Source of the DNA: Psammoneis japonica
Lineage: Eukaryota
Assembly: GCA_008632985.1 (NCBI GenBank)
Contig: QPGO01000010.1
Span: 124,001 to 188,000 of the forward strand
Length of the DNA stretch: 64,000 nucleotides
Reading direction: 5' to 3'
Positions within the stretch are counted from its first letter, which is position 1. Every line of letters starts with the position of its first letter. Positions 679-41,016 of the stretch are shown here, in pieces. The position numbers and the translations under genes are program-made. The notes beneath the pieces were generated by a model, which saw nothing but the letters and a program-made list of their open reading frames with translations, was not told the DNA's origin and did not search any database.

Positions 679-1299
679 CTCACAATGATTCTGGGTGCAA
701 AACTCTGACACACGCAAATGTGCCAACACTGCAAAAAAGTTTTTGTGATGTGCGTGCACACAACAACATGCTGGCTTGGCATTCTGGATGATGATTCTTT
801 GATGTGGCAGATTTGTGACAGCACACTCATTGTCATGAAACTCAAGCAATGCCCCAATCAAAACCCATCTTGACCAACCAGAAGGACAGCAGGGGGGTCT
901 TGCCACATGTTGAGCTGCTGTCATGGCCAATGAGGCAAAGTCTTTCACCACCATGGCAGGTTGTTAATTTGCAGATTTGCAACCACACATGGAATCCATG
1001 TGAATCACAGCAGCGCATGCTTTGGCTTTTCAACATTTTGGGAGAGGGTGTGCTGTTGTGAAGTGTGCAGAAAATTGTGCATGTAAAAAATGCACTGAAA
1101 ATGCAGCAGACCGACAGGCCATGCAAATCTGGGAAGCATGAAGAAAAATTTAAAATGGAGGGTGGGTCACGTGCGTGCAAAAAGTGGGCTGCACACGTGC
1201 AAACACACGATGTGAGTTGAGGAGGACCAAAGTGGAAACCAAGTTGAATTTGATGACTGTCAAAAGGAAACCAAACCATGCATCACAAAACACAGATGT

Positions 1300-4200
1300 C
1301 CTCTGTTCTAATTGATGAAATCAAACATTGCACGTGCATTTGATTGAAGCTTGTGCAAGAAAAGCCAGTGAGACATCAGATGAAACACAAAAAAATCTGC
1401 AATTTGTTGAGCACTGTTGCCGGCAGTTTTCAAATTTTGCTTGTCAACAATTTTGCCAATGCACATTAAAAAAATTTACAAAGGAAAGTGGAAACCACTT
1501 TGTTGCAGCCTCTGATGTCAACACACCCATGAATGAGGGCAAAGCAGCAGAGTGCAGCATCACAGCAGACAGCTCACTGTGGTTGATGGCAGCAGCATGA
1601 GCCTGGTTCATGGCAGAAGGCAGATGTTGGAAAAAGGTCTTGCCCAACTCAGAGAGAGGAAGAAAGTGAGGGCAACAGTGCAAGGGGTAAAAAGTGAGCA
1701 CCAGTGTGTGGAGAAATTGCTCAGGAAGTGAAGCTTTTGCCAATGTCATGTCAGCTCCACAAATGGAACCTTCGCTGAATCCCATGCGTGCTTGTCTGTG
1801 GAATGAAAACAGGAGCAGCACCAAAGTTCAAACCCACATGATGGGTTCCCCATTGGTTTGCCCATTGGTGGGACTCAATGGCATCTTAGACTGCATTCCA
1901 AGGATGCACTCCTCATGAGAAAAGGCACCATTTGAGACAGGTGTGGCAAAATGGGCCAGAGTGGTCCCCACAACAAGCGGACCCAATTGGGGTTTAGAAC
2001 ATGCCCACGCAAGTCCTTCAACCCATGCACTCCTGCTTTTGTGTGGCAACTTTTGGTCCAGCCAAGGATGTCCTCTCCTTGCTGGCTTGAAGTCTTGGCC
2101 ATGACATTTGCTTCTCAGACATGAAGGAAAGGTGTGCTGTGACATTGACAAAAGAAGAGTCCTGTTGGACCTGCTGTGCTCTTCACAAATTTTCAGTTTT
2201 GTGCGTGCCTTCAGAAAATGATGCATGAGTGAACTGAATGAGGGAAGATGCCAAAAGCACTCATGAAAGAATGCAAGCTGAAAGGTGCCAAGAGTGCAAT
2301 CAACCATGACCCAAATCTTGTCAGCACTTTAAGTCTTGGTTGGTGCAGTCAGCCAATCAACTTTCTGCAGGGACCCATGCAAAGAGGTGATGACCAAGTC
2401 ATTGGCCTTTGCAGACATGTTGAAAACATCTCTCAATGTGTTGGGTTCGTTGGGTCTGTTGGTCATTTTGGGCCATTTGGGCAGCTGCCTGGTTGTGCTT
2501 GGGCAGCTTCCAAAGCCTGTTGCAATGGATCAGGACAATGACACAGCTGTGGTCAAACCGCAGGGATTGGACAGATGCAGCGTTGGCTTGCTCCATGTTG
2601 CGTGAGTCGTCAAACAAGGTTTGCTCAAGAAAATCAACCGGGGATTCAGAGGATGCAGCGTGGAGATTTTCTTCATCCACAAAGTGTGCTGATTTGCATG
2701 TGCCAGTGGTGCAGCAAGAGGATTGGTGTGGACCAGCAGGAACAGGGTTGTCCGGGGTTGGTGAACTCAAAATGGAAAAAAATCTTTGGTGTCTGGTGGA
2801 TCTGCATCAAGTTCATGAGGAGTGGCATGGAGTTGACATTGAGGAAGTCTTTGACAGTTCCTGTGTGCTCATCTGCAGGTGTCTTGTCACAGTTGGTGAG
2901 TCCGGGTGTGTCATTGGAGATGTTCCAGATGGGTGGGGCACCTGAGAATAGAGTGTGATTACACACAAGTGAAGATTCAAAGACATTGTGTGCAACAATC
3001 AGATTTTTTGTGCCAGTTTCATTGGGAACATGCACCAAACAGCCAGCTCAGTTGGGTTGACATGAACACCATGGGAGTTGTGTTGGAGCTGTTGTTTGGC
3101 AGTGGTGTTGGACAGCCAGTTTCTGGATTGAGGGGTTGTTGCCTGTTGAAAGCAGTGGGACAGCCAAATGTGCAGAAGTGGTCAATCCTTGCAAGCTTGT
3201 TGAAGGCATGCTGGAAGTGTGGTGCAGCAAGAGAGCCATCAGCCATGTGGATGCCCTTGGTCAGTGGCACATTCAGGATTGCCATGGCATGGATGAACAG
3301 AGGTGCATGAATTGTCTGTTGTTGTTTGCACACATGCATTTGCACACTCTGTGCATGTGCACATTTGTGCATGGATCACACGCAAGGAAGCACATGCCCA
3401 GATGGCAAGACAGTTTGTGCACCTCTGTGGACAAAGGCAGAAGTGGGCCAAGAGGCAGGCATTCACAAGCAGGCAGCAAATGTTGTCAGATGCAACATGC
3501 CACATTCATTCACAAACTCCATTCATTTCTTGGTGACAAAGAGAGGCGCGGGAATTTTGACCTTGTTTCCGTTGTGTGCACCAAAGGAAATGAACTTGTT
3601 AGAGAGGAAGCACTGTGCAGAATTGGCGCAGATGAAGTTGACATCTTTCACATGGCCAACAGCTTGCACTTTGGCTGTCCAGGACTTGAAAGCAACAATG
3701 ATTGCCAGTGGTGGGGCTCTCAAGGCCACGGGCACCACAGTGGTGTCCCTTGTGTGTGGCCATGAAAAGATGACATGGAAAAGACGTTCCAGGGGTGAGA
3801 GCAAGGGAGTCACCTGGGATTTGGATTTACACCCATGAACACACGTGAAAAAGCATGCTCCATTTCAGTTGGGTCACACTTGACACAATTTTGTTTCTGT
3901 GACATGGTGATGTGTGCACTGTGCAAGTGGTCGTCAGTCCCAGGGGCAACATGACAATCACGCCAAACTTTGCCAGCGGCTCCAGCCAAAAAAGAACTCC
4001 AAGAAGAGCGACAACCAAGTTGATGACCTGCAAGGTCAAAGTCAATGGTGGTGGTCTTTGGGTGGGATGAAGCTGGTCAGGTGGTTGAGTGTCATTCTCC
4101 ACTTGATCTGTTGCATTGGAAACTGGAAACAAGAGGTTGAGCCAGCGCATCATGGCAAGATTGCTGCTGGGAAGCTGAAGGTGTGACCATCACCGAAGTC

Positions 4201-6700
4201 AAGTTTGATGATGTTTGTTGTGACCATGACATGGAACAGTTCATTGTTGGTGAACACATGGACCAAGAACAAGTTGTGATTGAGGCCAGGGAGATGCAGT
4301 GCATTTGGTCAAGGACAAGGTTGATGGGTGGCCTTGGTCATCTTGAAATTGCAAGGTGTGGACATGGGTGCCATCTGCAATCACAATGGGGGCATGACAA
4401 CCAGCACTGTTGTCAAGAGAATCATGGTGGACAAAGTGAGAGGAGGTGCCAGAGTCAACAAACCAGCTGCAAATGTTGGAGAGGTCAGTGTCACATGGCA
4501 ACTGCTGGGGTTGGTGTGCAGATTGGGGTCATTGGCCATTCAGGCAACTTCTTGACCAGGGGAGTTGATGACTGGGTTGGAAAAGAGAACAGCAAGGGGA
4601 TGAAGTTCTCTTGAGGAAGTCAACACTGACCCCTGAGACAACTGACAAGTTGTCACAATCTGAAGTGGTTGGCAACAGTTCCTCCAAAGGTGTGGTTGTG
4701 CATGCATCATGCAAATCCAATGGTGGAGTTGGTGTCAACTTTTTGGGAAGAGCAAGGATTTTGCTTGGAGGACCACAAGAGGTGAGAGGGCACTGTGGCA
4801 AGTGTGGTCTTGTGGTGACAAAGAGAAGACAGAGCAGTGGATGAGTCCATGCTGGAGTCACAAGAACAGAGAATCAAAAGTGGCAGACCAGTCAAGGCCA
4901 AGTTGCAGGGCAAGTCATCGCTGAATGAGTCAGAACCAGAATCCATTCAGTGCACATGTGGACAGAGTGGTGGTGAGGATCCACAAGTTGAGACAGACAG
5001 GCAACAATCTTCCTCTGCATCAGTGCAGGTGGCACAAAAAATGATTTGGTCATCATGTGGTTGGGCCGTGTTGTGGCAAGTCCAAGTGGCTGCATTTTGT
5101 GCTGAGTGGCAGCAGGAGCAGTTTGTGTTGGAGTGGACTTGAGCCCAAGGCAACAAGAACAGAGGTGTCCTTTCTTCTTGCAATGGCAGCAAGTGACTTC
5201 ACTCAAGTCATGGGCAGGCTTGGCAGTGGATTGGATTTGGGGCTGGACTTGGGTGTTCCATTTTTCAATTCATGAAGATGGGAACAAAACAGTTGGTGGC
5301 ATTGTGGTTCCTCTTGCCACAGCAGCTGCAAATTTCAGAAGTGATGGTGTTGTGTGTTTGTTGTTGTTGCCATTGTTTGTTGCCTGGAGGGTTCCTTGCC
5401 ATTTCAATGTGGTTGTTGTTCATGCACAAGCCGGTGCCACCAGACAAATGGTTGCAGTGTTGGGCAACATGATGTTGCTCGTCAATGTTGTAGAATGTTT
5501 GCCACATGTCCTTGAAGAGGGGAGCAATGGCAGAAGGCAGGCAAGTGGCAGCTCAAAATTCAGATTTGAGTTGCTTGGCAGCAGCATCACATCACAGATG
5601 ACCACCCGTTTGGCTGAGAAAGTGGGTGCTTTCCTTGGCATTGGTTGTGAGAGGCAGGCCCACATTTTTTTGCAGTTCCAAAACTTGTGCTTGCATTGCT
5701 TGATGAAGTTGTCAGAAGATTTGTTGGAGTTGCGGAAGTCCTGGAGGTGGTCACAAGTGCAGCAGTTGTGTTCCTGGGAGAGAGAAGCACGGTGCTGCTG
5801 CAGCTCTTTGAGTGCAAGGTTGCCAGATTTTGGGCCAAGATTGGAGATGTCCAACTTGCAAGCACCATCCGTGCATGTCCACAGCAAAGCAAGAAGAGCC
5901 TTGTTAGTTTCTGCCAGAAGGGAGCAGAGAGGGTCAGAGGGGAAGCCTTCAAGACAGTTGTCGAGCTCAGGAAAAGAGGAAAAAGAGTTTGTGCAGCTCA
6001 TTCAGGAAGGTGTTGAAGCTCTGATGGCGGGTGCATGGGTTCTGATGGTGTTTCAGAACTCCAAGCTTTGGCCATGTGGAATGCAGGCTTCATGAGAGAA
6101 TTTGCCAAAGATTCTGAGGTGCACTCTGTTGCGCTGGCAGTGCAATGAAGAGGCTCAGAAAGGATGGCATCATTGTCAGAGGAAGAAGCATCACAAAAAG
6201 TTTTGTTGGCAGACAATTGAAGTGGGAGTTCCAGGGGGAGTGCCTCAGCCTGTTGCATCATGTTCTGGAAACAGTCAAGGGCAAGGAGTGCACTGGCTTG
6301 ACAAGCTAGATGGCAATGGAGAAGGGACTCAAAGGACAACTTGGCAGCATTGATCATGCAGTCAAGGTCATCCTTGCCTTTGAAAAATGGAGCAAGTGTC
6401 TGTTGAACATTGGAGAGCACATCGGTGGTGACAATGCAAACTTGTGAATTGAGTGCACTGTTGACTGTGATGTCAGCAATGGCAGGGGTTGACGTCTTCA
6501 GAGGAAGTGGCTGTGTGGTTGGTGGCAAAGATGTTTTCCTGGTCCATGCACTGTGGGGTTGCAAGAGCTTTGTCAAGAGCTCTGTCCATCTCATGGTGTG
6601 CAGAGTGCACGTGCCATGAGGTTCTCTGGACATGTTGCTGGAGTCCCATTGGCGGCATTGACATTAGAAAGAGCTGGTGTGGCAGCTTCACAAACAGTCA
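1300..6700 (-). mobile_element. Degenerate Ty1/Copia-type LTR retrotransposon (gag-PR-IN-RT order); ends approximate
   Basis: On the minus strand: two gag zinc knuckles (CSCCGKRNHNATNC near 5310; VTCCHCKKKGHLCSCC near 5180), aspartic protease WFVDSGTSSH near 4450, integrase-like segment ending in HFCTFGCP near 3170, and RT-like GVHGLKD (cf. LYGLK) near 2020. Many stops and frameshifts. No LTR pair recognised. Confidence 0.7.
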
Positions 6701-8217
6701 AGAGAGGTGGGAATTCTTCAGGAGATCCAAGTGGAGCTGTCCCATTGGCCTTGGATCCATGGGCAGCAGGAGGAGAATGAGCAGGAGAGGTCAGGGGAGA
6801 GCAAGGTGCCCCCCTTTTGGCTGAAGCACTCTCATTGTCAGAAGCAACAGTGTTGACAGCAACACAAATGGATTGAGATGTCAAATGATCACGGGCGGGG
6901 TGGGTGTCCAGATGAATTGCATGTCCTCTTGGGCTTGCTCTTGAAGCGACAATCAACATCTTGACACTGAAATGGTTTCCAACAAGACATGCCATGGCAA
7001 TGACAACAGGTTCATGGGGCTTTGCATTCCTGATTGGGCATCATCTTTTTGTGCTTCTTTGGGTTGAGATTGGGGCAACAATTGTCAGGTCATTCACCTG
7101 AAGTGTGAGCAGAGTTGGCATGGTTGGCTGGTGCAGAAGGTTTCTGGGTGCAATTGTGCAGAGTTTCCACATCTGTGTCAAGAAGAATGTCCAAAGATTT
7201 GTTGACATCCTGCAAGTGGTTGCAGATTGCACAATCACAATCAAGATGCTTGGGGTCAGAAAAGTCAAAATCTCTTTGGTCAGCTTCATCCAACAAGTGG
7301 CCAAGATGAGCACTTGAGTGCTGCAAGACATGAAGGTTGGAGTTGAGTTTGGATGTCTCCATCTGGAGACTGGCAACTTGGTGCTGAGCTTGAGCAACAC
7401 ACAGTTTGAGAGCAAAACGCACATTGTCCTTGAATTGTTGGCAACAGAGTTCCTCAGGAGACAGCAGAGCAGGGGCTGGGGCATGCTGAGTGGCCGCAAT
7501 TGAGCTGCGGATGGCACACAGGCTTGGCGTGCCAAAGACCATGGACAGAGGAGCAAATGTCATGCTCAAAATCAGTGTCATCCTTGAAGGCATCAAAAGC
7601 ACAACAACAAGCACATTGCAAGCAATGAGCAGAGACCTTGTTGTGTCCAGGAGCAGGCTGGGATGGCTTGGCAGATGGCTTGGAAAGCAGTGCAGACGTG
7701 TGCTTGATGCATCGGATCGGGGTGCAGTGTGGTGCTCCCTGGGTCACGCATCAGCTGCATCAACAAGAACTTGTGGAGTGCAACACAAGTTGTGATGCTG
7801 GGCCTTGGGGACATTGTCAACAGTGCCTCCATGTGGACCACAAAAGACGCAATTTGGGTGTGCATGTGACAACACACCTTGCACAAGAAGAAGCAGCGTG
7901 AGATGCATGATGAGCATTTGACGCAAAAGAAGCACTCTCCTCAGACCAAACCAGAAGCATTGCAGCCATGACAGAAATTGAGAAAGAACTGGGCCTCGCC
8001 TGAAAGTGACTTGGGGTGATCAAGTCCGTGCACGAACAGGAGAGAGTGAGCTAAAAAGAGTGACAGCTTGCACCACCAAAGCATGATCCAGACATTGTGA
8101 CAGACTCTGCGCTAGTCTCAGAATCGAAGCCAAGATGGAAATCGAAGGATGATTCCAACATGCCAACTAAACGCTGCGGAATTGCGGATGATTTCCATCA
8201 CAAACTGACCAGAAGAC

Positions 8218-9966
8218 ATGGTCTTCAGTCATGACGTTCAAATTTCAAAAGGGAATTTGGAATCCCTGACATCAAGAAGCAACAAAAAAGGCCACCCAAC
8301 CGACCACCAATCTGAGCCTGTGACCCAAACGCAACGCAAAGATGATGATTCTCTCTTCCACATCTGCGAAATCAGAAAGACGCACAGAAAAAATGAAGAT
8401 CAAAGAGTTGCTCAAAAAACCATGAGAGTCCGAAGACCAGCAGCACGTGACAGGATGAAAGAGGTGGTGAGATGTTGGTTTCTTGTCTCGCTGCCCCTCT
8501 TGGGTGTCATGTGCGCCGTCGCGTGGTTGAGCTTTCAGCAGAATGGACCGATCGGGCCTGCGTCAATGAGCTACACTGGAACTAATGAATGCGAAAACAC
8601 TTGCGACTGGAGTAAATCCAATGTCCCAGAACTTCACCGAAAGCTCTTGCCGGCCCAGCCATTCAGTGTGCCACCAACCATTTTGCCAGTGCTGTCCATG
8701 CTCCGTGGCATTAGTCCCAAAAACAGACACAACCATCGTGCGCTGATGGCCATGCTGCTCTTTTCTGTTGGCATCCCAATGCATTTCACCGCACACTTCC
8801 AGCTTCTCGAACCCCAAAATGTGTCGACATGGTGTGGAGCATGGGGCTCAATGATTTTTGTCACTCAAGTGAGCATGCATCATCTGATCTTTGTTCGCAG
8901 CCTTCCTCACTCGGAAAATTCCAATGAGTCGCTCCTCATCTTGCCATTTGGCCTTGGTTTTGCCATTCACTTGTTGGGACACTTGCATTTCGGCGGCGGG
9001 GCCTTTGTGTTTGTGTGGACCCAATCCGTGGCGTTGCACATTATCTTGATGTACCCTTGGCTTCGCCTGGTGGACCGTTGGCTTGAGAAGCCACACTCAA
9101 GAGGCACGCTAATTAATGCAGTTTTGGGGTTCGCTTGGGATGCATTTTACCTTCCATTTTGCAGCAGACGCGAGTCTTTCTTTCTGCCAGGAGGCTTCCA
9201 AGTGCCACTCCATGCAATTGGTGATTGCTTTCACTCCGCAGCTTGGATCATGAGCTGTGCTCCGCTTGTGAATGACATTCTTACAAAAATTTCACACAAA
9301 CATGAGCACTGCACAGAGCAGAAGAAGAAGCAATTGCAGCAGTTGTTGGACTCACAGTTTGGGGAAATTTTGAACAGAACTAGTGTAAATGCACCCTCCA
9401 GCCATTTGGATGGATTCTTTCAAACCATGTGGGTGTCGCCACCAGTGGTTGTTCCCCGTGTAAATCTGGGAACACCTCCCACAGTGCAGGGGTGGTTCTC
9501 TCAGGTGCATGTGACAGAAGCCATCAGCGAGATCTATCTTCATGAGATGCTCCGGCCATGTGATCAAGAAATTTCAGTGGAAATCTTTTTGGCCGACTGG
9601 TCCACCTCCAGATGCAGCACGCAACTTTCTGCCTTCGCCCCTCACAAAACTCTGGGACACTGCTCTTCCCCTGCTGGGACTTTGAAGAAACAGCAAGAAG
9701 TCTTGAAAGCCAAGAGTGACCGGAAAGCATTGGTCATGCACTCTGCCGGTGTTCCACTCGATCGCACTGAATCATGGAGACATTGCCATGCGTGCCATTT
9801 ACCTTCCATGACCTTCGTCCCAGCCAACTCTCACTTTGCCTCCAAAGTGTTGTTGCAGATCCAGCAACGCGCCATGCGAGTGATTTTCGCTAAATGTGGG
9901 TGCAATCGGAATGACAAGCGCCTCATTCTGTACGGCCCTCAATCTCTCAGTGGGGGCGGATTTTGA
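8218..9966 (+). pseudogene. Multi-pass membrane protein of unknown function, mutated copy; lost stop codons make it read through into TE sequence
   Basis: Several hydrophobic helices. Aligns with 15231-16352 with many Y->H/C changes. TAG TAG of copy 2 is CAG CAG here (9337-9342). Confidence 0.65.
9400..9575 (-). mobile_element. RT fragment resembling DIRS/Ngaro-type retrotransposons
   Basis: HLMKIDLADGFCH (K-x-D-L-x-D-G-F-Y motif), followed in another frame by FPDLHGEQPLVATP. Confidence 0.55.
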
Positions 9967-12400
9967 TCCTTGGACGTTGAACAGGGCATGATTGCGCAAC
10001 TGCAACAGTTCCTTCGGCACTCTTGTGGGTTCAACACATGCTGTCAGAAGATCAACCACATGCCGCAGCTCACATTGCCATTGCTTGGCATCAGCTGCAG
10101 CTGGGTGTGGGAATCAGCTTCCTAAAAGATGTCAGCACCAGACATCCACACAGTGAGTCCCACTGGCTTGCATCTGTCCACTTGTTCCTGCATCGTGTGG
10201 GTGGATGCATTGCTGTGTCCCAGGACGGGGTGTCACCTCTGCAATGTGACAATGATCAGCTCCCAATGGACATTGCCTTGGAGTTGTTGGAATTTTTGTC
10301 CCAAGAAATTTGGTGGATCAACCATTGTTGATTGCACCTTCAAGTGCTGCTCACGGTCTCAGACATTGCCTTGGCGGATGGCTGCAACCTGGATGAGTCC
10401 AAAGTCTGTGGTGACGACCCCACTTTCTCCTTGGCAGCATCAGCACCTTGTTTGACAATGTTGAACAGACCAAACCTTGTCTCAAGGCATGGGGTCCCTG
10501 AGTGTGCCTGTGTGAAATGTTGTGTGATGATGGATCCACCAGACTGCAAGCTCTTTTGGGAGATTGGCCAGTGCCTCCTTCCAACAAGATGCAGATTCAA
10601 GCCTCTGCCTGTTGGTCTCCAGAAGAATCACATTTTTGTGTGAGATCTCCATCTGGTTTTAATGTGTTTCTGGCCAAAGACACAGTCGCAACATCATCAC
10701 ATCAAATTGAAACAGTTCCTTCTCCAGCTGACTCATCTTTCCCAGCAGAAATCAACTCACTCAATGAAGGACGGTGGCAATGCATCCCTCACAGATCGCA
10801 GCTGACAGTTGACACACATCCTCTGCCACCCAAGCTCTTCAAAGACCGGCTGCAAGGCCTGCCTTCTTGGGAGTCAGCCCTCTTCTCAGAGATGGAATTC
10901 CACATGTCCCTCTGCAAATTAGCGGATTGCTTTGTTTCAAATTGCCTGATGTCAGGAAGTGACGGGTCTGTGATCCTCCAGAATGACGACCTTTGGCAGA
11001 CTGTGCAGGACTGGCATTTGGCAGAACACCTTCCTCTTGCCAAGCTGAAGCATGTGGCTTTCTCTCCTTGACACGATTTGTTTTCTGCCTGCAGGAGTTT
11101 TGCAAATTGTCCTCATGCAAGGGAGCTGACAACTGGTGCAACAACAAGGCTCTCATTCGAGTTCTGTCCCGTCTCACAGACAGCCGTCCCTCCATTGATC
11201 CCTCCCCTTGTGTCCATCCCGAACTTGATTTTCACCTTTGGAAGCATGTTGCCAATGTCTTGTCATCAGATTGGGGCATTGTGAACAAAATTTGTCAGAC
11301 CTTCACCACTGTCAAAGCCGTTCTTAATCAGTCTTCCCCCAGTCAGGTTCCCACACTTGCTTGAGTGGGTAAAAGGACATCAAGATTGACATCATCCGGT
11401 GGAAACTCCATCTCACAATGTGCAAATCAACATGCGGACTGACAAGCTGGCAGGCTGCTTTCATGGTCAACGTGAGTTTGACATGACAACGGTGTCCCCC
11501 CACTGCCAGTCTTGCCTCCACCTTCAAGATGGGCCCATTGGGGAAAGAAATGAATGGAACGAATCTGTCACTGACAAGATGGATTGGAAGGTGCATGCAA
11601 TGCTGGTTCATTGATGCTCCACATGTGTCCACTGTCAAATTGATCCATGAACTGCCACCTGCAGCCAAACAAGATTGCTCATCGATGCGATCCAGTCAGA
11701 CCGCATCATTGCCTGTCTTGCAAACATTCCATGGAAGATTGCAATCACATCCTGCAGTGTCCAGCCAATGAACCTTCTTGGCAATGCAAACTCTTGCAGG
11801 GTCTGCAAAAACACTGCAATGATGTTGATGCAATGCCTCCTCTTTGGGATCTGTTCTTGTCCTCTGTTGAAGCATGGTTTGAAGGTGAGATGACATGTGA
11901 TGATGACATTCACCCCTTGTTGCAACCTCCATGGAGAGCCCAGTCAGACATTGGATGGTGACAACTGTTCAATGGCCGTTGTTCCACCCTCTAGAACACT
12001 TTTCAAGAAATGCACCTCTGCAACATGGGACTGTTGGAAAAGTGTAGAAAGGAGAGCCGCCCACCTCCAGTCTGGGCTGTGCAGACAGGAACCTGCATTT
12101 GGAAATCTTGGTGGGAGTTGTGGGAGGAGCACAATCAAGAGGTCCACAGTCATGACGTGGACACTGGGAAGTCATCTCTGTGACAACAAGTGGAGGCCAA
12201 GCTCACGGCAATGTGCAACAAAAGACAGGATCATTTGGCTAAAGATGGGGACATGCTGATGGATTCAGTTGAAGAGCACCAATCTCACTCCACTTTGCAG
12301 ATGATTGGCTGGATCGCAATGGCAAAACCACAACTGAAAGACAGCCTCAAGAAAGCAAAGTGCTCCATGCGGCACTTGCTCTGCAGCCAGTTGTTTTGGC
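9600..12400 (+). mobile_element. 5'-truncated, degenerate non-LTR (LINE-like) retrotransposon with RT C-terminus, RNase H and CCHC finger
   Basis: HKTLG...G (RT thumb), LYGPQSLSGGGF..EQG, RNase H motifs SDGS, SSCQAEACG (cf. SSYRAE), CNN, EWVKGHQD (near 11364) and QINMRTDKLA, then CLSCKHSMEDCNHILQC zinc finger. Confidence 0.75.
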
Positions 12401-12539
12401 GGGTTGGTGTCACCTTCAGATGATGCCCATTCTGGCTGATTTGCACAAGCTTCTGCCGCACCGCAAGGTGCACTTGACGTGTGGGTCAGCTGGTGCCGGC
12501 CTGGCTGGCAAAGGAGTGATGGCGCTCAAAAGATTGACC

Positions 12540-12897
12540 TGGTTTTTTTAATCTTCATGAGACACACCTTGAAAGTTTGCCCAAGTGGCATTGATTTGAC
12601 TGAAGCAGTGGGCTGTGTGGCTGAATTTTCACCCCATAAAATGTTCAGTCCATCCACTGTGGGCCTTGGTTGGTGACCGTGCTGTGACACAACACCAATG
12701 GAGCCAAGTCACAGTCCTGGTGTGTCTTGTGCAAGCACTTTTTTTGCATGGTGGCACAGCTGTCCAGAACCCTTTTTCAACCACATCTGCCATGTCTTTG
12801 TGCAAGAACTTGATGCACTTGCAAGTGGATTCATGTGTTCCCCTGGTGACACTGGCATCCAGCTCAGCACGTGTCCACAGTGCATCAGTGATGGTGT
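12540..12897 (-). mobile_element. DIRS-like RT N-terminal fragment, cut at the duplication junction
   Basis: LWTRAELDASVTRGTHEST..KFLHKDMADVVEKGFW resembles the region upstream of DIRS-type RTs (W....RG.H.S / FL..EM......GFW). Confidence 0.5.
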
Positions 12898-15230
12898 GCA
12901 AAGCAAGAAGAGCCTTGTTAGTTTCTGCCAGAAGGGAGCAGAGAGGGTCAGAGGGGAAGCCTTCAAGACAGTTGTCGAGCTCAGGAAAAGAGGAAAAAGA
13001 GTTTGTGCAGCTCATTCAGGAAGGTGTTGAAGCTCTGATGGCGGGTGCATGGGTTCTGATGGTGTTTCAGAACTCCAAGCTTTGGCCATGTGGAGTGCAG
13101 GCTTCATGAGAGAATTTGCCAAAGATTCTGAGGTGCACTCTGTTGTGCTGGCAGTGCAATGAAGAGGCTCAGAAAGGATGGCATCATTGTCAGAGGAAGA
13201 AGCATCACAAAAAGTTTTGTTGGCGGACAATTGAAGTGGGAGTTCCAGGGGGAGTGCCTCAGCCTGTTGCATCATGTTCTGGAAACAGTCAAGGGCAAGG
13301 AGTGCACTGGCTTGACAAGCTAGATGGCAATGGAGAAGGGACTCAAAGGACAACTTGGCAGCATTGATCATGCAGTCAAGGTCATCCTTGCCTTTGAAAA
13401 ATGGAGCAAGTGTCTGTTGAACATTGGAGAGCGCATCGGTGGCGACAATGCAAACTTGTGAATTGAGTGCACTGTTGACTGTGATGTCAGCAATGGCAGG
13501 GGTTGACATCTTCAGAGGAAGTGGCTGTGTGGTTGGTGGCAAAGATGTTTTCCTGGTCCATGCACTGTGGGGTTGCAAGAGCTTTGTCAAGAGCTCTGTC
13601 CATCTCATGGTGTGCAGAGTGCGCGTGCCATGAGGTTCTCTGGACATGTTGCTGGAGTCCCATTGGCGGCATTGACATTAGAAAGAGCTGGTGTGGCAGC
13701 TTCACAAACAGTCAAGAGAGGTGGGAATTCTTCAGGAGATCCAAGTGGAGCTGTCCCATTGGCCTTGGATCCATGGGCAGCAGGAGGAGAATGAGCAGGA
13801 GAGGTCAGGGGAGAGCAAGGTGCCCCCCTTTGGCTGAAGCACTCTCATTGTCAGAAGCAACAGTGTTGACAGCAACACAAATGGATTGAGATGTCAAATG
13901 ATCATGGGCGGGGTGGGTGTCCAGATGAATTGCATGTCCTCTTGGGCTTGCTCTTGAAGCGACAATCAACATCTTGACACTGAAATGGTTTCCAACAAGA
14001 CATGCCATGGCAATGACAACAGGTTCATGGGGCTTTGCATTCCTGATTGGGCATCATCTTTTTGTGCTTCTTTGGGTTGAGATTGGGGCAACAATTGTCA
14101 GGTCATTCACCTGAAGTGTGAGCAGAGTTGGCATGGTTGGCTGGTGCAGAAGGTTTCTGGGTGCAATTGTGCAGAGTGTCCACATCTGTGTCAAGAAGAA
14201 TGTCCAAAGATTTGTTGACATCCTGCAAGTGGTTGCAGATTGCACAATCACAATCAAGATGCTTGGGGTCAGAAAAGTCAAAATCTCTTTGGTCAGCTTC
14301 ATCCAACAAGTGGCCAAGATGAGCACTTGAGTGCTGCAAGACACGAAGGTTGGAGTTGAGTTTGGATGTCTCCATCTGGAGACTGGCAACTTGGTGCTGA
14401 GCTTGAGCAACACACAGTTTGAGAGCAAAACGCACATTGTCCTTGAATTGTTGGCAACAGAGTTCCTCAGGAGACAGCAGAGCAGGGGCTGGGGCATGCT
14501 GAGTGGCCGCAACTAAGCTGCGGATGGCACACAGGCTTGGCGTGCCAAAGACCATGGACAGAGGAGCAAATGCCGTGCTCAAAATCAATGTCATCCTTGA
14601 AGGCATCAAAAGCACAACAACAAGCACATTGCAAGCAATGAGCAGAGACCTTGTTGTGTCCAGGAGCAGGCTGGGATGGCTTGGCAGATGGCTTGGAAAG
14701 CAGTGCAGACGTGTGCTTGATGCATCGGATCGGGGTGCAGTGTGGTGCTCCCTGGGTCACGCATCAGCTGCATCAACAAGAACTTGTGGAGTGCAACACA
14801 AGTTGTGATGCTGGGCCTTGGGGACATTGTCAACAGTGCCTCCGTGTGGACCACAAAAGACGCAATTTGGGTGTGCATGTGACAACACACCTTGCGCAAG
14901 AAGAAGCAGCGTGAGATGCATGATGAGCATTTGACGCAAAAGAAGCACTCTCCTCAGACCAAACCAGAAGCATTGCAGCCATGACAGAAATTGAGAAAGA
15001 ACTGGGCCTCGCCTGAAAGTGACTTGGGGTGATCAAGTCCGTGCACGAACAGGAGCGAGTGAGCCAAAAAGAGTGACAGCTTGCACCACCAAAGCATGTT
15101 CCAGACATTGTGATAGACTCTGCGCTAGTCTCAGAATCGAAGCCAAGATGGAAATCGAAGGATGATTCCGACATGTTAACTAAACGCTGCGGAATTGCGG
15201 ATGATTTCCATCACAAACTGACCAGAAGAC

Positions 15231-16352
15231 ATGGTCTTCAGTCATGACGTTCAAATTTCAAAAGGGAATTTGGAATCCCTAACATCAAGAAGCAATAAAA
15301 AAGGCCACCCAACCGACCACCAATCTGAGCCTGTGACCCAAACGCAACGCGAAGATGATGATTCTCTCTTCCACATCTGCGAAATCAGAAAGACGCACAG
15401 AAAAAATGAAGATCAAAGAGTTACTCAAAAAACCATGAGAGTCCGAAGACCAGTAGTACGTGACAGGATGAAAGAGGTGGTGAGATGTTGGTTTCTTGTC
15501 TCGCTACCCCTCTTGGGTGTCACACACGCCGTCGCGTGGTTGAGCTTTCAGCAGAATGGACCGATCGGGCCTACGTCAATGAGCTACACTGGAACTAATG
15601 AATGCGAAAACACTTACGACTGGAGTAAATCCAATGTCCCAGAACTTTACCGAAAGCTCTTGCCGGCCCAGCCATTCAGTGTGCCACCAACCATTTTGCC
15701 AGTGCTGTCCACACTCCGTGGCATTAGTCCCGAAAACAGATACAACCATCGTGCGCTGATGGCCATGCTGCTCTTTTCTGTTGGCGTCCCAATGCATTTC
15801 ACCGCACACTTCCAGCTTCTCGAACCCCAAAATGTGTCGACATGGTATGGAGCATGGGGCTTAATGATTTTTGTCACTCAAGTGAGCATGTATTATCTGA
15901 TCTTTGTTCGCAGCCTTCCTCACTCGGAAAATTCCAATGAGTCGCTCCTCATCTTGCCATTTGGCCTTGGTTTTGCCATTTACTTGTTGGGACACTTGCA
16001 TTTCGGCGGCGGGGCCTTTGTGTTTGTGTGGACCCAATCCGTGGCGTTGCACATTATCTTGATGTACCCTTGGCTTCGCCTGGTGGACCGTTGGCTTGAG
16101 AAGCCATGCTCAAGAGGCATGCTAATTAATGCAGTTTTGGGGTTCGCTTGGGATGCATTTTACCTTCCATTTTGCTGTAGACGCGAGTCTTTCTTTCTAC
16201 CAGGAGGCTTCCAAGTGCCACTCCATGCAATTGGTGATTGCTTTCACTCCGCAGCTTGGATCATGAGCTGTGCTCCGCTTGTGAATGACATTCTTACAAA
16301 AATTTCACACAAACATGAGCACTGCACAGAGGAGAAGAAGAAGCAATTATAG
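15231..16352 (+). pseudogene. Multi-pass membrane protein of unknown function, less mutated copy (373 aa ORF; true start may be a later ATG)
   Basis: Hydrophobic helices, retains several Tyr codons and the stop TAG at 16350-16352. Carries its own TA->CA/TG changes. Confidence 0.6.
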
Positions 16353-16612
16353 TAGTTGTTAGACTCACAGTTTAGGGAAATTTTGAACAGAACTAGCACA
16401 AATGCACCCTCCAGCCATTTGGATGGATTCTTTCAAACCATGTGGGTGTCGCCACCAGTGGTTGTTCCCCGTGTAAATCTGGGAACACCTCCCACAGTGC
16501 AGGGGTGGTTCTCTCAGGTGTATGTGACAGAAGCCATCAGCGAGATCTATCTTCATGAGATGCTCCGGCCACACAATCAAGAAATTTCAGTGGAAATCTT
16601 TTTGGCCGACCG

Positions 16613-19414
16613 GTCTGCCTCCAGATGCAGCACGCAACTTTCTGCCTTCGCCCCTCACAAAACTCTGGGACACTGCTCTTCCCCTGCTGGGACTTTGAAG
16701 AAACAGCAAGAAGTCTTGAAAGCCAAGAGTGACCGGAAAGCATTGGTCATGCACTCTACCGGCATTCCACTCGATCGCACTGAATCATGGAGACATTGCC
16801 ATGCGTGCTATTTACCTTCCATGACCTTCATCCCAGCTAACTCTCACTTTGCCTCCAAAGTGTTGTTGCAGATCCAGCAACGCGCCATGCGAGTGATTTT
16901 CGCTAAATGTGGATGCAATCGGAATGACAAGCGCCTCATTCTGTACGGCTTTCAATCTCTCAGTGGGGGCGGATTTTGATCCTTGGACGTTGAACAGGGC
17001 ATGATTGCGCAACTGCAACAGTTCCTTCGGCACTCTCGTGGGCTCAACACATGCTGTCAGAAGATCAACCACATGCCGCAGTTCACATTGCCATTGCTTG
17101 GCATCAGCTGCAGCTGGGTGTGGGAATCAGCTTCCTAAAAGATGTCAGCACCAGACATCCACACAGTGAGTCCCACTGGCTTGCATCTGTCCACTTGTTC
17201 CTGCATCGTGTGGGTGGATGCATTGCTGTGTCCCAGGACGGGCTGTCACCTCTGCAACGTGACAATGATCAGTTCCCAATGGACATTGCCTTGGAGTTGT
17301 TGGAATTTTTGTCCCAAGAAATTTGGTGGATCAACCATTGTTGATTGCACCTTCAAGTGCTGCTCACGGTCTCAGACATTGCCTTGGCGGACGGCTGCAA
17401 CCTGGATGAGTCCAAAGTCTGTGGTGACGACCCCACTTTCTCCTTGGCAGCATCAGCACCTTGTTTGACAATGTTGAACAGACCAAACCTTGTCTCAAGG
17501 CATGGAGTCCCTGAGTGTGCCTGTGTGAAATGTTGTGTGATGATGGATCCACCAGACTGCAAGCTCTTTTGGGAGATTGGCCAGTGCCTCCTTCCAACAA
17601 GATGCAGATTCAAGCCTCTGCCTGTTGGTCTCCAGAAGAATCACATTTGTGTGTGAGATCTCCATCTGGTTTTAATGTGTTTCTGGCCAAAGACACAGTC
17701 GCAACATCATCACATCAAATTGAAACAGTTCCTTCTTCAGCTGACTCATCTTTCCCGGCAGAAATCAACTCACTCAATGAAGGACGGTGGCAATGCATCC
17801 CTCACAGATCGCAGCTGACAGTTGACACACATCCTCTGCCACCCAAGCTCTTCAAAGACCGGCTGCAAGGCCTGCCTTCTTGGGAGTCAGCCCTCTTCTC
17901 AGAGATGGAATTCCACATGTCCCTCTGCAAATTAGCGGATTGCTTTGTTTCAAATTGCCTGATGTCAGGAAGTGACGGGTCTGTGATCCTCCAGAATGAT
18001 GACCTTTGGCAGACTGTGCAGGACTGGCATTTGGCAGAACACCTTCCTCTTGCCAAGCTGAAGCATGTGGCTTTCTCTCCTTGACACGATTTGTTTTCTG
18101 CCTGCAGGAGTTTTGCAAATTGTCCTCATGCAAGGGAGCTGACAACTGGTGCAACAACAAGGCTCTCATTCGAGTTCTGTCCCATCTCACAGACAGCCGT
18201 CCCTCCATTGATCCCTCCCCTTGTGTCCATGCCGAACTTGATTTTCACCTTTGGAAGCATGTTGCCAATGTCTTGTCATCAGATTGGGGCATTGTGAACA
18301 AAATTTGTCAGACCTTCACCACTGTCAAAGCTGTTCTTAATCAGTCTTCCCCCAGTCAGGTTCCCACACTTGCTTGAGTGGGTAAAAGGACATCAAGATT
18401 GACATCATCTGGTGGAAACTCCATCTCACAATGTGCAAATCAACATGCGGACTGACAAGCTGGCAGGCTGCTTTCATGGTCAATGTGAGTTTGACATGAC
18501 AACGGTGTCCCCCCACTGCCAGTCTTGCCTCCACCTTCAAGATGGGCCCATTGGGGAAAGAAATGAATGGAATGAATCTGTCACTGACAAGATGGATTGG
18601 AAGGTGCATGCAATGCTGGTTCGTTGATGCTCCACATGTGTCCACTGTCAAATTGATCCATGAACTGCCACCTGCAGCCAAACAAGATTGCTCATCGATG
18701 CGATCCAGTCAGACCGCATCATTGCCTGTCTTGCAAACATTCCATGGAAGATTGCAATCACATCCTGCGGTGTCCAGCCAATGAACCTTCTTGGCAATGC
18801 AAATTCTTGCAGGGTCTGCAAAAACACTGCAATGATGTTGATGCAATGCCTCCTCTTTGGGATCTGTTCTTGTCCTCTGTTGAAGCATGGTTTTGAAGGT
18901 GAGATGACATGTGATGATGACATTCACCCCTTGTTGCAACCTCCATGGAGAGCCCAGTCAGACATTGGATGGTGACAACTGTTCAATGGCCGTTGTTCCA
19001 CCCTCTAGAACACTTTTCAAGAAATGCACCTCTGCAACATGGGACTGTTGGAAAAGTGTAGAAAGGAGAGCCGCCCACCTCCAGTCTGGGCTGTGCAGAC
19101 AGGAACCTGCATTTGGAAATCTTGGTGGGAGTTGTGGGAGGAGCACAATCAAGAGGTCCACAGTCATGACGTGGACACTGGGAAGTCATCTCTGTGACAA
19201 CAAGTGGAGGCCAAGCTCGCGGCAATGTGCAACAAAAGACAGGATCATTTGGCTAAAGATGGGGACATGCTGATGGATTCAGTTGAAGAGCACCAATCTC
19301 ACTCCACTTTGCAGATGATTGGCTGGATCGCAATGGCAAAACCACAACTGAAAGACAGCCTCAAGAAAGCAAAGTGCTCCATGCGGCACTTGCTCTGCAG
19401 CCAGTTGTTTTGGC
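16613..19414 (+). mobile_element. Second copy of the degenerate LINE-like element
   Basis: Same motifs as 9600-12400 at offset 7013-7014. Confidence 0.75.
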
Positions 19415-19554
19415 GGGTTGGTGTCACCTTCGGATGACGCCCATTCTGGCTGATTTGCACAAGCTTCTGCCACACCGCAAGGTGCACTTGACGTGTGGGT
19501 CAGCTGGTGCTGGCCTGGCTGGCAAAGGAGTGATGGCGCTCAAAAGATTGACCT

Positions 19555-20100
19555 GGTTTTTTTAATCTTCATGAGACACACCTTGAAAGTTTGCCCAAGT
19601 GGCATTGATTTGACTGAAGCAGTGGGCTGTGTGGCTGAATTTTCACCCCATAAAATGTTCAGTCCATCCACTGTGGGCCTTGGTTGGTGACCGTGCTGTG
19701 ACACAACACCAATGGAGCCAAGTCACAGTCCTGGTGTGTCTTGTGCAAGCACTTTTTTTGCACGGTGGCACAGCTGTCCAGAACCCTTTTTCAACCACAT
19801 CTGCCATGTCTTTGTGCAAGAACTTGATGCACTTGCAAGTGGATTCATGTGTTCCCCTGGTGACACTGGCATCCAGCTCAGCACATGTCCACAGTGCATC
19901 AGTGATGGTGTGATGGGAGCACGCACCTCGGTGCTTGCAGCTGCTCAACAACTGGTGTGCCAGATGTTTCTGCATGTGAGACAACCACCTCCAATCTCAT
20001 TCTCTGCTGCTGTGATGTTCGAACAAGTGGCTCAGTCCTCCATCACACAATGATTCAGTGTCAATTGCTGGTGCATGCTCCTCACCCAATTCATCACAGC
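19555..20100 (-). mobile_element. DIRS-like RT upstream region, longer remnant
   Basis: KHLAHQLLSSCKHRGA...LWTCAELDASVTRGTHEST...FLHKDMADVVEKGFW. Confidence 0.5.
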
Positions 20101-21627
20101 AAACTGTGGTGGCAGCTCCCACATCCTGCCCAGGTGCACCTGGAGTGGCAGGTGTGACAGCATTTTGCTGTTGCAAAAACAGGCTCTCTTGGCCCCAGTT
20201 TCCTGCACTGTCTGGGCCAGTGTCAAAGACCTGCTTCATTTTCCAGTTTTCTTCACCCCCCAAACACCAAGTGAAGAACCTGATTTGTTCAGCCTTGGAG
20301 TGGTCATTGTGGTGATCATCACTTGTGCTGCAGTTGGTGCTGAGATGTTTCTTTGTGTGACACAGGTTGCAATGAAGTGACCTTTGGTCTAAAGCTTGTG
20401 GTTGAAGCTCTGTCTTTTCAATCACGTGATCGCAGGTGTCTGGAAAGGAGGAGACTTCCGTTCCCCCTTGATCAGGGGCCAGTTTGCCATGCTTCTTGCC
20501 TTTCCAGGAGCAATTTCATTACAGTGATTTGGAAGCCATTTGCAGCACTGATGGCAAGTGCACACAACATGGACATCCCATTGTTCCATCAGTGGCATCA
20601 AGTTGCCCCACAACTGTGACTGAGCGTCCTTTTTTCATTGTGAAACAAACCAATCCATTGTTGGACATAAATGCATTGTGATTTTTCTTGCGATGCTTTT
20701 GAGGTTCACTGCCAAATTGTCTCCACACCTTTGAGCAATGTTTCTCTTTGATTTGTTCACCAGCACAGCAAGACAGGCAAATGCCATCTTGAACAATGCA
20801 GCAGTTGTCTTTTTGTAACTTGCTCTCGTGATTGGTGGCAAACAATCTCATGGCAGCAGTGCTCGTGTCCGGTGGACCAACTTGCAGTGCCATTGAAGGT
20901 GCTTTGCCACTTACAAAGACGTTTACAAAGCGCCCCTGGACGTCTCTGGGCGTTGACTGGTTGCTAAGAAAACACTGAGAAGGGATCTGACGGCATGATC
21001 GCTTGATTTCGTTCCACAAAAAAAATTTTTTTTCGTGCGGCGACTAACCAATAAAGATGAGAAAGATCAGAGAACGTGATGGTTCTCGTAGAAGGATGGT
21101 GGCAGGCCAACGCAAGAGAGCTCAAATTCACCATAGAAACTGCTTCTGACTACGCGTTGATCTAAGGATGATTTATGAGAGGCAATATAGCATCACCGTA
21201 CAGCCTCTTCCGAGTCGCTTGAACCGCCATGACGTTTCATTCTTCCTTGTGGCCCTCTTGCAGTTTGCCTTAGCGCTGGTGTTGGGTTTCTGATACCTCG
21301 CTGACGAGTCCCAAAAATGATTACTCTGGGGAGCATAAGAAGGAGAGCTACGGCATGCGTTGACTTGAAACGAAAACCACCAGACTCTCTGTGTAACTTG
21401 CTACGCAGACAGGCTTCCGCTACGACTAGCATCTTACCGCATCGCGTTGATCAAAACATCACACCGCTGTCCTTTACGGAGATAGATCGGGGAAGTCCAT
21501 ATACATGTTATGCATCAGGTGGATTTACCCCCTGCAGCATGGCAGGTCACGGCAGTCATTGATGAGATCCTGGACCTGCCGAACAATTGGGCATAACGAG
21601 CGAGACCTTTTTCTCGCGCTTGCGGTG

Positions 21628-22711: not shown

Positions 22712-24765
22712 TTATTCGCCAGCCGTGTATTCTTCTAGTCTCCATGAATAGCTCTTCTCTTCTAATAAATCGTTGAATGCTTTTGCATACAATCGGTAGT
22801 GTTCTTCAAGTTTCTTTCGAAGCGACGGCCTTAGAAAGCTCTCTTGCCCAAGGTTTACATACTCTGATGCCGCCTTTTCAATAGCAGGAACATCAATCCG
22901 ACGGGTGTCAACCTTGAGGTGGTTTAACACCTTGAAGACGAATGCGACGGCATCCTTTTCAATGTCATCAAAGTTGAGAATGAGTATTTGTTCGTCAGGG
23001 AAATGCTTGTACCAGCGCCTTAGCGCGACTTCGTAGTTGCTTCTCTCTTCATGATCTCGGTCTTCCAACTTCTTCATAAAAAAGTAGTCGTTGAATTGTG
23101 AGGTGTTAGTCGTTGTCAGAATTCCCTTCTTCTCGTCTCCGCGAAGGTTCTTACGAACGTGACTCCACGCTCGGTCTATTAAATTTCGTGCCACAAAGAA
23201 TATTCTAACGTCGGGAAAAAGGAGTCGAATTTCTCGAATGTCTTCGTCAGGAAGGGCCAAGTAGTGTGGTGTTAGCTCGCCGTGGAGTAAATTGGTCATG
23301 TCCTTCCGATGGCGATTCGGAAAGTGGTCGCTGTACCATTTGAGACCATTGAAGCGATGATTGTCCCAGAAATGGATTTCCTTTTGTATTCCAAAGTCAA
23401 CCTGAGGGCGGCACAGTCTAAGCATGTCAGCCAACCAGGTCGTCGCCGCTCCCTGAGCCCCAATGCCAAGGAACGATATGTTCACGTCGAGATCATGGTA
23501 ATCGATTGGAAGCTCATTTGCCTCTGGAAGAACTTGCGTCCCTACGTTTTTAAAGAAGTCTTTCCATCTAGGGTCATTCAAAATGATATCCACATCCAAC
23601 GAGCAGGGCAACCGTTTCCTAAATCCTTGTCTAAATTCAAGCCTCAGATAAGCTTCGCCGTATTCGGACTCGTAAAAGTCGGGAAGAATGTCCTGCTCTA
23701 TTGATATTGTCATGTTGAGCATTCTGTCTATTTCATCCTGGGACAAGCAGTGAAGAGGAAAGTCCTTCTTTCGTTTGTATCGTAGCAACGTGCCGTAGTG
23801 CTGGGCTGCCTCTGTCACGAATCTTCTCGACAATGAAGCATTTACAAGTCCCTTCTCGTAAGCAGCCACTGATAACAGGTCGAACTGCAATCATCCGTAA
23901 AGTTTCGGTGCTCTACTCGAGTTGCATTATTTAAAGGGGATAGAATACCGCACACTCTTGCTGCCTCTGGGACATGACGACAGAAGAAATTTCCAATGAG
24001 GTTTCCTGGAGCGTGTGCATTGAAGACTGACACATTGGAAAACCTTTTCTTCCATTGTTTCAAGATCTCTTGCGGATGCATGTTTTTACGTTGTATAGTT
24101 TGATTGAAAGATGCTTTAAGTGACGAGACCTTTTGTCCTCCCTGGTCGGGCCACTTGTTTGAATCTCGAATCTTTTTCGTTGTCATTTGCGTGTAATGAT
24201 TAGGCACCCATTCGTGAAATCTACGATAGGAATACACGACACGGACATCCCAATCCTGGACTAGCTCAAGAAGATGAACCCAAAGATGCCTTTGCGCATC
24301 TTCGACTTTATAAAATGCTCCAAGAAACTCGTTCGACACGAGAATATTGTGATTCCTTTCTCGATGAAACTCAAGAGTTTTTCCGAATTCTTTCCATGCT
24401 CTCGTGCAATCTTCTTCCTCGTCTTCTGAAATAAGGTAACATTTTTGGTACAATTGATCAGATGAATGTTCTTCTACGTAGAAGAGATTGTCTTGTTGCA
24501 GTTCTTGTTCGTGGTTAGCGGCAAACTCCTGGATACTGGAAGTGTTTGTGTTGGGTGGGCCGACGATTAGCGTTAAAATCGGCTTTTCATTCCCTTGTTG
24601 TTGTTGCTTTCGTTTCGTTGATAGATTCAGAAACCCACCATCATCGAAGCTCGCCACCTTTGGAACTCCATCTATAATCCCAAGGTTGCCTCCGTTGTAG
24701 AAAACCCATAACGAGGCAAGAAACGCAAGCCCCGTCACCGTGAAGTAGTTTGATATCATGGGCAT
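22712..24765 (-). CDS. Type II membrane two-domain sulfotransferase-like protein; 1-nt frameshift near 23890
   Basis: N-terminal TM, then IVGPPNTNTSSIQ P-loop-like domain, then a sulfotransferase domain (FLGIGAQGAATTWL, KEIHFWD, GELTPHYL, ARNLIDRAWSH). ORFs 23842-24765 and 22712-23890 join with one extra base. Confidence 0.75.
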
Positions 24766-40180: not shown

Positions 40181-40200
40181 CACACACACACACACACACA
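40181..40200. repeat. (CA)10 microsatellite
   Basis: Direct read. Confidence 0.9.
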
Positions 40201-40214
40201 AATCTCCCACGTAA

Positions 40215-40983: not shown

Positions 40984-41016
<33 letters not shown>

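Follow-up and report, generated by a model that had tools for sequence, protein, structure and literature searches.

Background

Targeted hypermutation of nuclear DNA at TpA steps has, in the literature searched, one matching prior report, which Mettrop et al. posted in 2026 as a preprint and which concerns a rhizarian alga (bioRxiv 10.64898/2026.01.13.699255). According to the text of that preprint, mutation-accumulation lines of Bigelowiella natans gave 302 new mutations. Two regions derived from integrated viruses received 231 of them, and in 230 of these regional mutations A became G or T became C, in every case at TpA; the rate was approximately 6e-7 per site and generation, which exceeds the background about 1000-fold. 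The same text proposes an ADAT2-like protein as the enzyme and cites the DNA activity of amphioxus ADAT2 and of engineered TadA. Other reports of hypermutation from TpA to TpG or CpA, or of any such process in diatoms, were not found in a full-text literature search. The present study concerns a stretch of 64,000 nucleotides of the diatom Psammoneis japonica (assembly GCA_008632985.1, contig QPGO01000010.1, positions 124,001 to 188,000 of the forward strand), hereafter the window, whose first letter is position 1. It contains a tandem duplication and several blocks that are nearly devoid of TpA and poor in CpG. We assign a probability of about 0.8 to the reading that selected domains of this diatom nuclear DNA have undergone, in situ, an A:T-to-G:C hypermutation at TpA, alongside a separate decay of CpG.

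A targeted nuclear hypermutation from A:T to G:C is the mirror image of fungal repeat-induced point mutation (RIP) and of APOBEC activity. RIP depends on a cytosine methyltransferase-like protein and on a sexual phase. The natural tRNA target of the TadA/ADAT enzymes is U-A*-C, where the asterisk marks the adenine acted upon. Methylation of diatom transposable elements is reported to depend on DNMT5a (PMC9998398).

Results

Depleted blocks across the window

Approximately half of the 64-kb window lies in sharply bounded blocks that are poor in TpA and CpG, with borders drawn by a two-state hidden Markov model segmentation (Table 1). Per kb, TA amounts to 2.9 in the depleted blocks against 40.3 in normal sequence (-37.4) and CG to 10.6 against 56.1 (-45.5), whereas CA reaches 110.3 against 67.7 (+42.6) and TG 115.9 against 72.5 (+43.4). 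The total of pyrimidine-purine (YpR) steps is 239.7 per kb in the depleted blocks and 236.6 in the normal ones, and base composition is unchanged; TA and CG were therefore converted into CA and TG by transitions. Counted in 500-bp intervals, normal stretches hold about 20 TA, 28 CG, 32 CA and 36 TG, and depleted stretches about 1, 4, 55 and 58, respectively. The observed/expected ratio of TpA in the blocks is 0.02-0.07, and that of CpG is 0.08-0.24, compared with approximately 1.0 outside. The process erased both steps well outside the duplication, a reach that an earlier, preliminary description of this DNA did not mention.

Differences between the two copies of the duplication

Self-BLAST of the window found a direct repeat, 5884-12898 against 12898-19912, at 98.43% identity with 108 mismatches, and a global alignment of the two copies, A and B, returned 108 substitutions and 3 indel columns. 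Copy B ends in a G (19912) that matches the base opening the unit, a microhomology of 1 nt, and since the borders share no further sequence, exactly two copies lie head to tail. When the sequence is reduced to purines and pyrimidines, so that transitions leave no trace, the copies are 99.86% identical. The preliminary description had claimed a duplication of 7,014 bp with TG in one copy facing CA in the other at several sites; every site it quoted is present in the alignment at the position given, and the reciprocal steps number nine. Of the differences it quoted, TGTA/CACA lies at 9384-87/16397-400, cagCagCa/cagTagTa at 8441/8444 and catcat/tattat at 8878/8881.

Transitions make up 100 of the 108 substitutions, and 86 are exchanges of one YpR step (TA, CG, CA or TG) for another. 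In a pairwise tabulation by context, which the preliminary description had suggested, TA of one copy faces TA of the other at 31 steps, CA at 19 and TG at 12; CG faces CG at 123, CA at 20 and TG at 17; CA faces TG at 9, while 691 CA/CA and 742 TG/TG pairs are unchanged. TA steps thus differ in 31 of 62 cases (50%), against 22 of 3,685 (0.6%) non-YpR positions (Fisher P 3e-45), and CpG steps in 37 of 160 against the same 22 of 3,685 (P 5e-38). The differences cluster in an island of 1.9 kb, at about 8110-9976 in copy A and 15114-17038 in copy B, which holds 30 of the 31 TA/CA-TG differences and all nine reciprocal TG/CA steps. CpG is little altered there, with 7 of 73 steps differing.

Copy number and read support

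Read-derived Logan contigs from public runs were placed on the window; the runs belong to one sample, probably the one that was assembled, and their support for the assembly is not independent. They bear on an alternative in which the duplication is an assembly artefact, diverged haplotypes having been placed in tandem, so that the differences would be allelic. Diatoms are diploid, a further version of the sequence is present in the reads, and no contig among those listed (23 pieces not shown) bridges 12897/12898, all of which would suit such an artefact. However, contig k-mer depth is approximately 111 inside the repeat unit and 57-64 in both flanks. The doubled depth means that two copies are present in the read set, which speaks against falsely duplicated haplotypes, for which the depth would equal that of the flanks. 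Contigs moreover terminate at 5913, 12898 and 19855, the branch points required by a true two-copy graph, and the contig start at 12898 is such an expected branch point. The TA-centred spectrum and the window-wide blocks would in any case stand regardless of how the copies were assembled, and we consider the artefact very unlikely. Two stretches of copy B, 13959-15012 and 16594-18701, are without contig placement because collapsed contigs were placed on copy A. Read depth and junction-spanning reads had been named as checks in the preliminary description: the depth agrees with its duplication, and the bridging of the junction was not seen in the listed contigs.

The reads also carry variation at TA steps. 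A variant at 15712 has a depth of 30/65, and at 20622 the reads have TA where the window has TG, which suggests that both are heterozygous TA/CA-TG sites. A contig from run X1 matches the window up to 19535 and continues with 255 nt of unlike sequence, which may point to another copy, or to a structural variant, of the end of the unit. Searching metagenome contigs by exact stretches for further alleles returned 0 matches, and RNA runs containing the stretch were absent among the runs listed.

Direction of change

A third version of the island allowed the changes to be polarised. It is a Logan contig of 984 nt from run X2, placed on 15394-16377. Its comparison with copy B shows nine differences, every one of them a TA of the contig facing CA or TG in B. 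Four of these are the reciprocal steps that it covers (15523/4, 15525/6, 15712/3 and 16107/8), while at the five remaining differences copies A and B carry an identical CA or TG. About 17% of the positions of copy B could become TA by one transition, which puts nine of nine by chance at approximately 1e-7. Over the contig stretch the TA sets are nested, with 39 in the third version, 30 in B and 10 in A, and none is private to A or B. The TA density of the third version, 39.6 per kb, is that of normal blocks. These results show TA to be the ancestral state here and CA/TG the derived one, and a TA ancestor would be expected also at the five reciprocal steps that lie beyond the contig (9384 to 9751 in copy A).

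The preliminary description had argued for a TA ancestor on the ground that a peptide GVIYAVAW would then be encoded, and had named an outgroup as the arbiter. Codons 98-99 of the third version are ATA TAC (I-Y), giving this very peptide, and the outgroup has TA rather than TG or CA. Its view that the process is recent or ongoing agrees with TA/CA-TG differences among versions inside one sample.

All nine losses of copy B fall among the 29 losses of copy A over this stretch (hypergeometric approximately 0.05), and the overlap fits hot sites rather than shared ancestry. The nine double hits divide into five with the same outcome and four with different outcomes, consistent with the 1:1 expected of independent hits.

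The opposite direction would have a RIP-like C>T change at CpA/TpG create TA in copy B and in the third version, with CG as the ancestor of the reciprocal sites. Such a scheme requires only the well-known deamination of cytosine, and the stop codons of the TA-bearing copies (TAG TAG at 16350-55) resemble RIP damage. It is nevertheless hardly credible in view of where the changes lie. TA differences occur at 1 of about 1,115 CA/TG steps of the flanks and at 30 of about 357 in the island (Fisher P 3e-18); loss of TA accounts for this simply, as the flanks have almost no TA and only the island had any left to lose. The third version, supposedly the most mutated, has exactly the normal TA density, and the reciprocal sites would need four changes per step over the three versions rather than two. 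The depleted blocks are poor in TA (2.9 per kb) and without AT enrichment, and the CpG steps of the island, as noted, are little changed.

Sequence context and strands

In the old blocks as in the recent events, the loss of TA is set by the base 3' of the adenine, in the order T>C>G>A. Strand-symmetrised survival in depleted relative to normal sequence is 0.009 for TAT, 0.034 for TAC, 0.084 for TAG and 0.196 for TAA. At the level of NTAN words, TTAA is the best survivor (0.435), and ATAT, GTAC, ATAC/GTAT and ATAG/CTAT are extinct. A model with two independent strands and a hazard that depends on the 3' neighbour fits the 16 residual NTAN counts, with relative hazards of T 8.0 : C 5.4 : G 3.0 : A 1. 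Among the recent events of the duplication, hits per opportunity by 3' base are T 0.38, C 0.25, G 0.08 and A 0.09.

Both strands are struck. The events in copy A comprise 19 on the plus and 19 on the minus strand, interleaved and without long runs (runs test P 0.56), and neighbouring events within 5 bp are on the same strand in 8 of 9 cases (P 0.04). These counts agree with the hits on either strand that the preliminary description had put forward.

The strand pattern also bears on a route through RNA, namely ADAR-type A-to-I editing of double-stranded RNA followed by reverse transcription into the genome. The text of the B. natans preprint (bioRxiv 10.64898/2026.01.13.699255) lends it some appeal, in that ADARs prefer U as the 5' neighbour of the edited A and target double-stranded RNA derived from repeats. 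The copies are, however, adjacent and diverged in place, the events of the two strands are interleaved as described above, and a Pfam search of the open reading frames (ORFs) of the blocks found no reverse-transcriptase domain, so that this route appears extremely improbable.

Hypermutation at TpA could in principle begin on the other base of the pair. Modified thymines occur in some protists, and 5-formyluracil is mutagenic. A TET/JBP-type oxidase might convert the T of TpA into 5-hydroxymethyl- or 5-formyluracil, which mispairs with G and yields T>C, and the context results would fit equally owing to the symmetry of the data, T-A*-T being read as A-T*-A from the opposite strand. Nothing in the window favours this lesion over adenine deamination, and the text of the B. 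natans preprint prefers an adenine deaminase resembling ADAT2, on prediction alone. We regard the thymine lesion as unlikely and adenine deamination as probably the cause of TpA loss.

Short tandem repeats in the normal blocks served as a control. Their ratios of transitions to transversions are 30:29, 40:43 and 15:12, and TA is kept. Over the whole window, short tandem repeats lie at 56162-56873 (unit of 359 bp), 51201-51459 (128 bp), 52280-52451 (48 bp) and 62949-63872 (about 450 bp); the array with the 48-bp unit sits within an ORF at 51828-53066.

Loss of CpG and its relation to the loss of TpA

TA-depleted domains extend past CpG-depleted ones at three borders. TA is depleted and CpG normal in the margins 40019-40243 and 58057-58723 and in the island of copy A (8110-9976). 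The TA-poor but CpG-normal island and the overshooting TA domains show that the loss of TA is faster than, and separable from, that of CpG; the TA process reaches further, or acts sooner. Eighteen of the 37 CpG/CA-TG differences between the copies are in an ACG/CGT context. When the CpG differences are read as gains (C-A*-T to C-G-T), their rates by 3' neighbour are T 0.025 > G 0.012, C 0.011 > A 0.0045 (P 0.004), an order that echoes the T-A*-N rule and may reflect off-target A>G changes at CpA creating CpGs.

Content of the blocks and neighbouring genes

Because TAA and TAG vanished, long ORFs crowd every frame of the blocks and overlap one another, e.g. 5106-6095 (329 amino acids). They are artefacts, which gene callers would probably report. 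Rfam and tRNA scans gave 0 hits.

Segment 40948-41598 is collinear with 47452-48352 only in purine/pyrimidine space (segments 52/52, 95% and 80% identical). Such matches hint that the depleted blocks may be old repeats masked by transitions. The excess of transitions in old repeats within the window is uninformative, since the pairs were chosen in purine/pyrimidine space.

The island of copy B contains an orphan ORF of 373 amino acids with hydrophobic segments. No relatives were found by Pfam, by a word search (0 of 1,489 candidates), among viral contigs, or by a full HMMER search over 1.84 billion representatives (0), and the ESM Atlas returned only sub-threshold scores (at most 0.83), to diatom hypothetical proteins. 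Most A/B differences in the ORF are non-synonymous, copy A having His or Cys at positions where B has Tyr, from which it follows that both copies decay without selection. The TAG TAG of copy B is CAG CAG in A, which leaves the frame of A open over 8218-9966; the resulting ORF of 582 amino acids is an artefact of stop loss.

Borders of the blocks adjoin genes. The TA border at 40019 is near an ORF end at 40023, and that at 42478 is near the start of a D123/CDC123-like gene, which stands between two depleted blocks: one TA-depleted domain ends 112 bp before its start, and the next begins 400 bp past its stop. The closest relative of its product, at 51% identity, is from the centric diatom Stephanocyclus meneghinianus. 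The frames of a copper-transporting P-type ATPase (HMA and E1-E2 domains) are split, which probably reflects introns; its top match is from Asterionellopsis glacialis (59%), Leptocylindrus danicus was also matched, and the organism is named in the source for 5 of the 120 relatives listed, all five being diatoms. Sulfotransferase genes form a cluster at 22712-26533. The proteins encoded in the normal blocks are thus eukaryotic, and their relatives mark the DNA as that of a diatom.

Table 1. Features of the 64-kb window; positions are those of the window
Feature	Position	Strand	Remarks
Depleted block	2..15112		from the window edge or earlier; reaches 5.9 kb beyond the left end of the duplication and takes in copy A and the first part of copy B
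Depleted block	17039..20909		end of copy B and 1 kb rightward
Depleted block	40219..42315		TA-depleted domain (40019-42478) wider than the CG-depleted one (40243-42382)
Depleted block	44159..50327		from the segmentation
Depleted block	55805..58433		TA-depleted 55784-58723; CG-depleted 55805-58056; CpG normal from 58057
Copy A	5884..12897		7,014 bp; more mutated copy, 38 inferred TA losses
Copy B	12898..19912		11 inferred TA losses
Head-to-tail junction	12897..12898		one Logan contig begins precisely at 12898
Island of copy A	8110..9976	+	CpG near normal, TpA largely lost
Island of copy B	15114..17038	+	TpA near normal (46 TA), CpG near normal; most A/B differences
Reciprocal site	8510..8513		A TGTG, B CACA (15523-15526), third version TATA
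Reciprocal site	8699..8700		A TG, B CA (15712-13), third version TA
Reciprocal site	9094..9095		A CA, B TG (16107-08), third version TA
Five reciprocal TG/CA steps, copy A	9384-85, 9559-60, 9561-62, 9603-04, 9750-51		
Same five steps, copy B	16397-98, 16572-75, 16616-17, 16763-64		
Orphan ORF, 373 amino acids, hydrophobic segments	15231..16352	+	ends TAG TAG (16350-55)
Sulfotransfer_1/3 gene	22712..23890	-	sulfotransferase cluster 22712-26533
Gal-3-O-sulfotransferase-like gene	25307..26533	+	sulfotransferase cluster 22712-26533
Copper-transporting P-type ATPase (HMA, E1-E2 domains)	31706..34109	+	split over three frames
D123/CDC123-like gene	42590..43759	+	between two depleted blocks

Discussion

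The pattern can be accounted for by two processes acting on the same DNA. Chosen chromosomal domains would be hypermutated in situ, TpA becoming TpG or CpA, as the self-complementary TA step is struck on either strand independently at a rate governed by the 3' neighbour of the adenine. The same domains would lose CpG to TpG/CpA by a slower, separable process, most simply the deamination of 5-methylcytosine in methylated, silenced DNA. The two combined would turn nearly all TA and CG into CA/TG at constant composition. At the time the copies, or alleles, parted, TA in the 1.9-kb island would have stood at its normal level. The inferred losses thereafter, 38 TA in copy A and 11 in copy B, would have arisen independently and given rise to the reciprocal TG/CA sites. 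The sequences show the duplication, the mutation spectrum, the ancestral TA, the action on both strands, the context rule and the block structure. The chemistry would be deamination of adenine to inosine by a putative TadA/ADAT- or ADAR-like enzyme acting on DNA, the targeting would follow a silenced chromatin state, and the system may be the same as in Bigelowiella natans. The substrate may be double-stranded DNA, as the preliminary description proposed, or transiently single-stranded DNA, and either duplication or silencing may be the trigger.

Several points weigh against this account. One contig serves as outgroup; it comes from the sample that probably gave the assembly, may be an allele of copy B or a third paralogue, and covers four of the nine reciprocal steps. 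The junction lacks a bridging contig among those listed, and the losses of the two copies are unequal, both in total (38 against 11 TA) and among single losses (28 against 2, P 9e-7). The context analysis takes the normal blocks as a proxy for the ancestral composition of the depleted ones. The 37 CpG differences are unpolarised, as the third version does not reach the flanks, and the ACG/CGT excess, when read as losses, runs counter to the long-term pattern, where depletion is strongest at TCG. As for the nature of the targets, Pfam gave no match at E <0.005 for the 73 ORFs of at least 110 amino acids in the depleted blocks (with a few chance matches at 0.005-0.03) and no credible match in 150 of the 161 ORFs of 65-109 amino acids, and the purine/pyrimidine similarity between blocks rests on uncalibrated E-values. 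Finally, sequence alone does not tell whether the adenine was deaminated or the thymine paired with it was damaged.

Three further candidates were rejected: selection against TA and CG, since both copies have been free of constraint; biased gene conversion, which cannot alter two identical copies; and APOBEC-type editing at TC/CC.

A bolder and still doubtful extension is that diatoms and chlorarachniophytes share an old defence system found throughout the stramenopile-alveolate-rhizarian (SAR) supergroup, namely a DNA adenine deaminase of TadA/ADAT type that would recognise 5'-T-A*-Y on either strand and be aimed at silenced or newly duplicated DNA. With 5-methylcytosine decay, it would rewrite every self-complementary YpR step to CA/TG. 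If so, off-target editing at C-A*-T may even create new CpGs, and the duplication would be a natural time-course of the system switching on at a previously normal gene.

A near-saturated signature over about half of a 64-kb window implies that the process may be widespread in the SAR supergroup and may be a major shaper of repeat-rich diatom genomes. Old repeats would be made unrecognisable and hence missed by repeat annotation, the removal of TAA and TAG would yield long false ORFs, and composition-based analyses would be distorted. The duplication and its third version together provide a polarised and internally controlled data set, in which the context rule (T-A*-T>C>G>A, with the strands independent) and the separability of TA and CpG loss limit where the enzyme is to be sought. 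Base-editing research would also have an interest in a natural adenine editor that works on DNA.

Compared with known systems, the window resembles fungal RIP in that its changes are transition-only, dinucleotide-specific and defence-like, both copies of a duplication being hit and reading frames destroyed. In contrast to RIP, TA is consumed rather than produced and AT enrichment is absent; moreover, blocks outside the duplication are equally depleted, while the small tandem repeats of the normal blocks are untouched. Methylation-driven CpG decay, as in animals, plants and diatom transposons, likewise turns CpG into TpG/CpA and leaves low CpG in blocks, and it explains the CG half of the pattern; here, however, TpA is hit as well, and its loss runs ahead of that of CpG. 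The polynucleotide adenine deaminases (TadA, ADAT2-3 and ADAR) perform the A-to-I conversion that is read as A>G, their required 5' U/T matches the TpA rule, and the U-A*-C target of TadA/ADAT resembles the T-A*-Y preference seen here, whereas TadA/ADAT2-3 and ADAR are known as RNA editors.

The closest likeness is to B. natans with its integrated DNA of nucleocytoplasmic large DNA viruses (NCLDVs) and virophages, as described in the text of the preprint (bioRxiv 10.64898/2026.01.13.699255). In both, A>G or T>C changes occur at TpA only, giving TpG or CpA according to strand; they are confined to discrete regions, the long-term footprint is a depletion of TpA with a gain of CpA and TpG, mostly over sequence that defies annotation, and the process seems episodic or uneven. 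The host here is a stramenopile rather than a rhizarian, and about half of the window is affected. The depletion is near-saturated, with TpA observed/expected at 0.02-0.07, in contrast to a Rho of 0.45 in their NCLDV region. The targets in B. natans are integrated viral DNA, whereas for the blocks described here the Pfam searches gave no credible sign of a viral or transposon origin. CpG is co-depleted in the diatom, and the terms CpG, diatom and trinucleotide are absent from the preprint's text (supplements apart), which likewise does not discuss a 3'-neighbour preference such as the T>C>G>A order observed here. The mutations were watched experimentally in B. natans and are read from the DNA itself in P. 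japonica. For TpA-directed hypermutation of DNA, the diatom supplies a second case, independent of the first and from a new lineage, and adds information on polarity, strand and context that the published case lacks.

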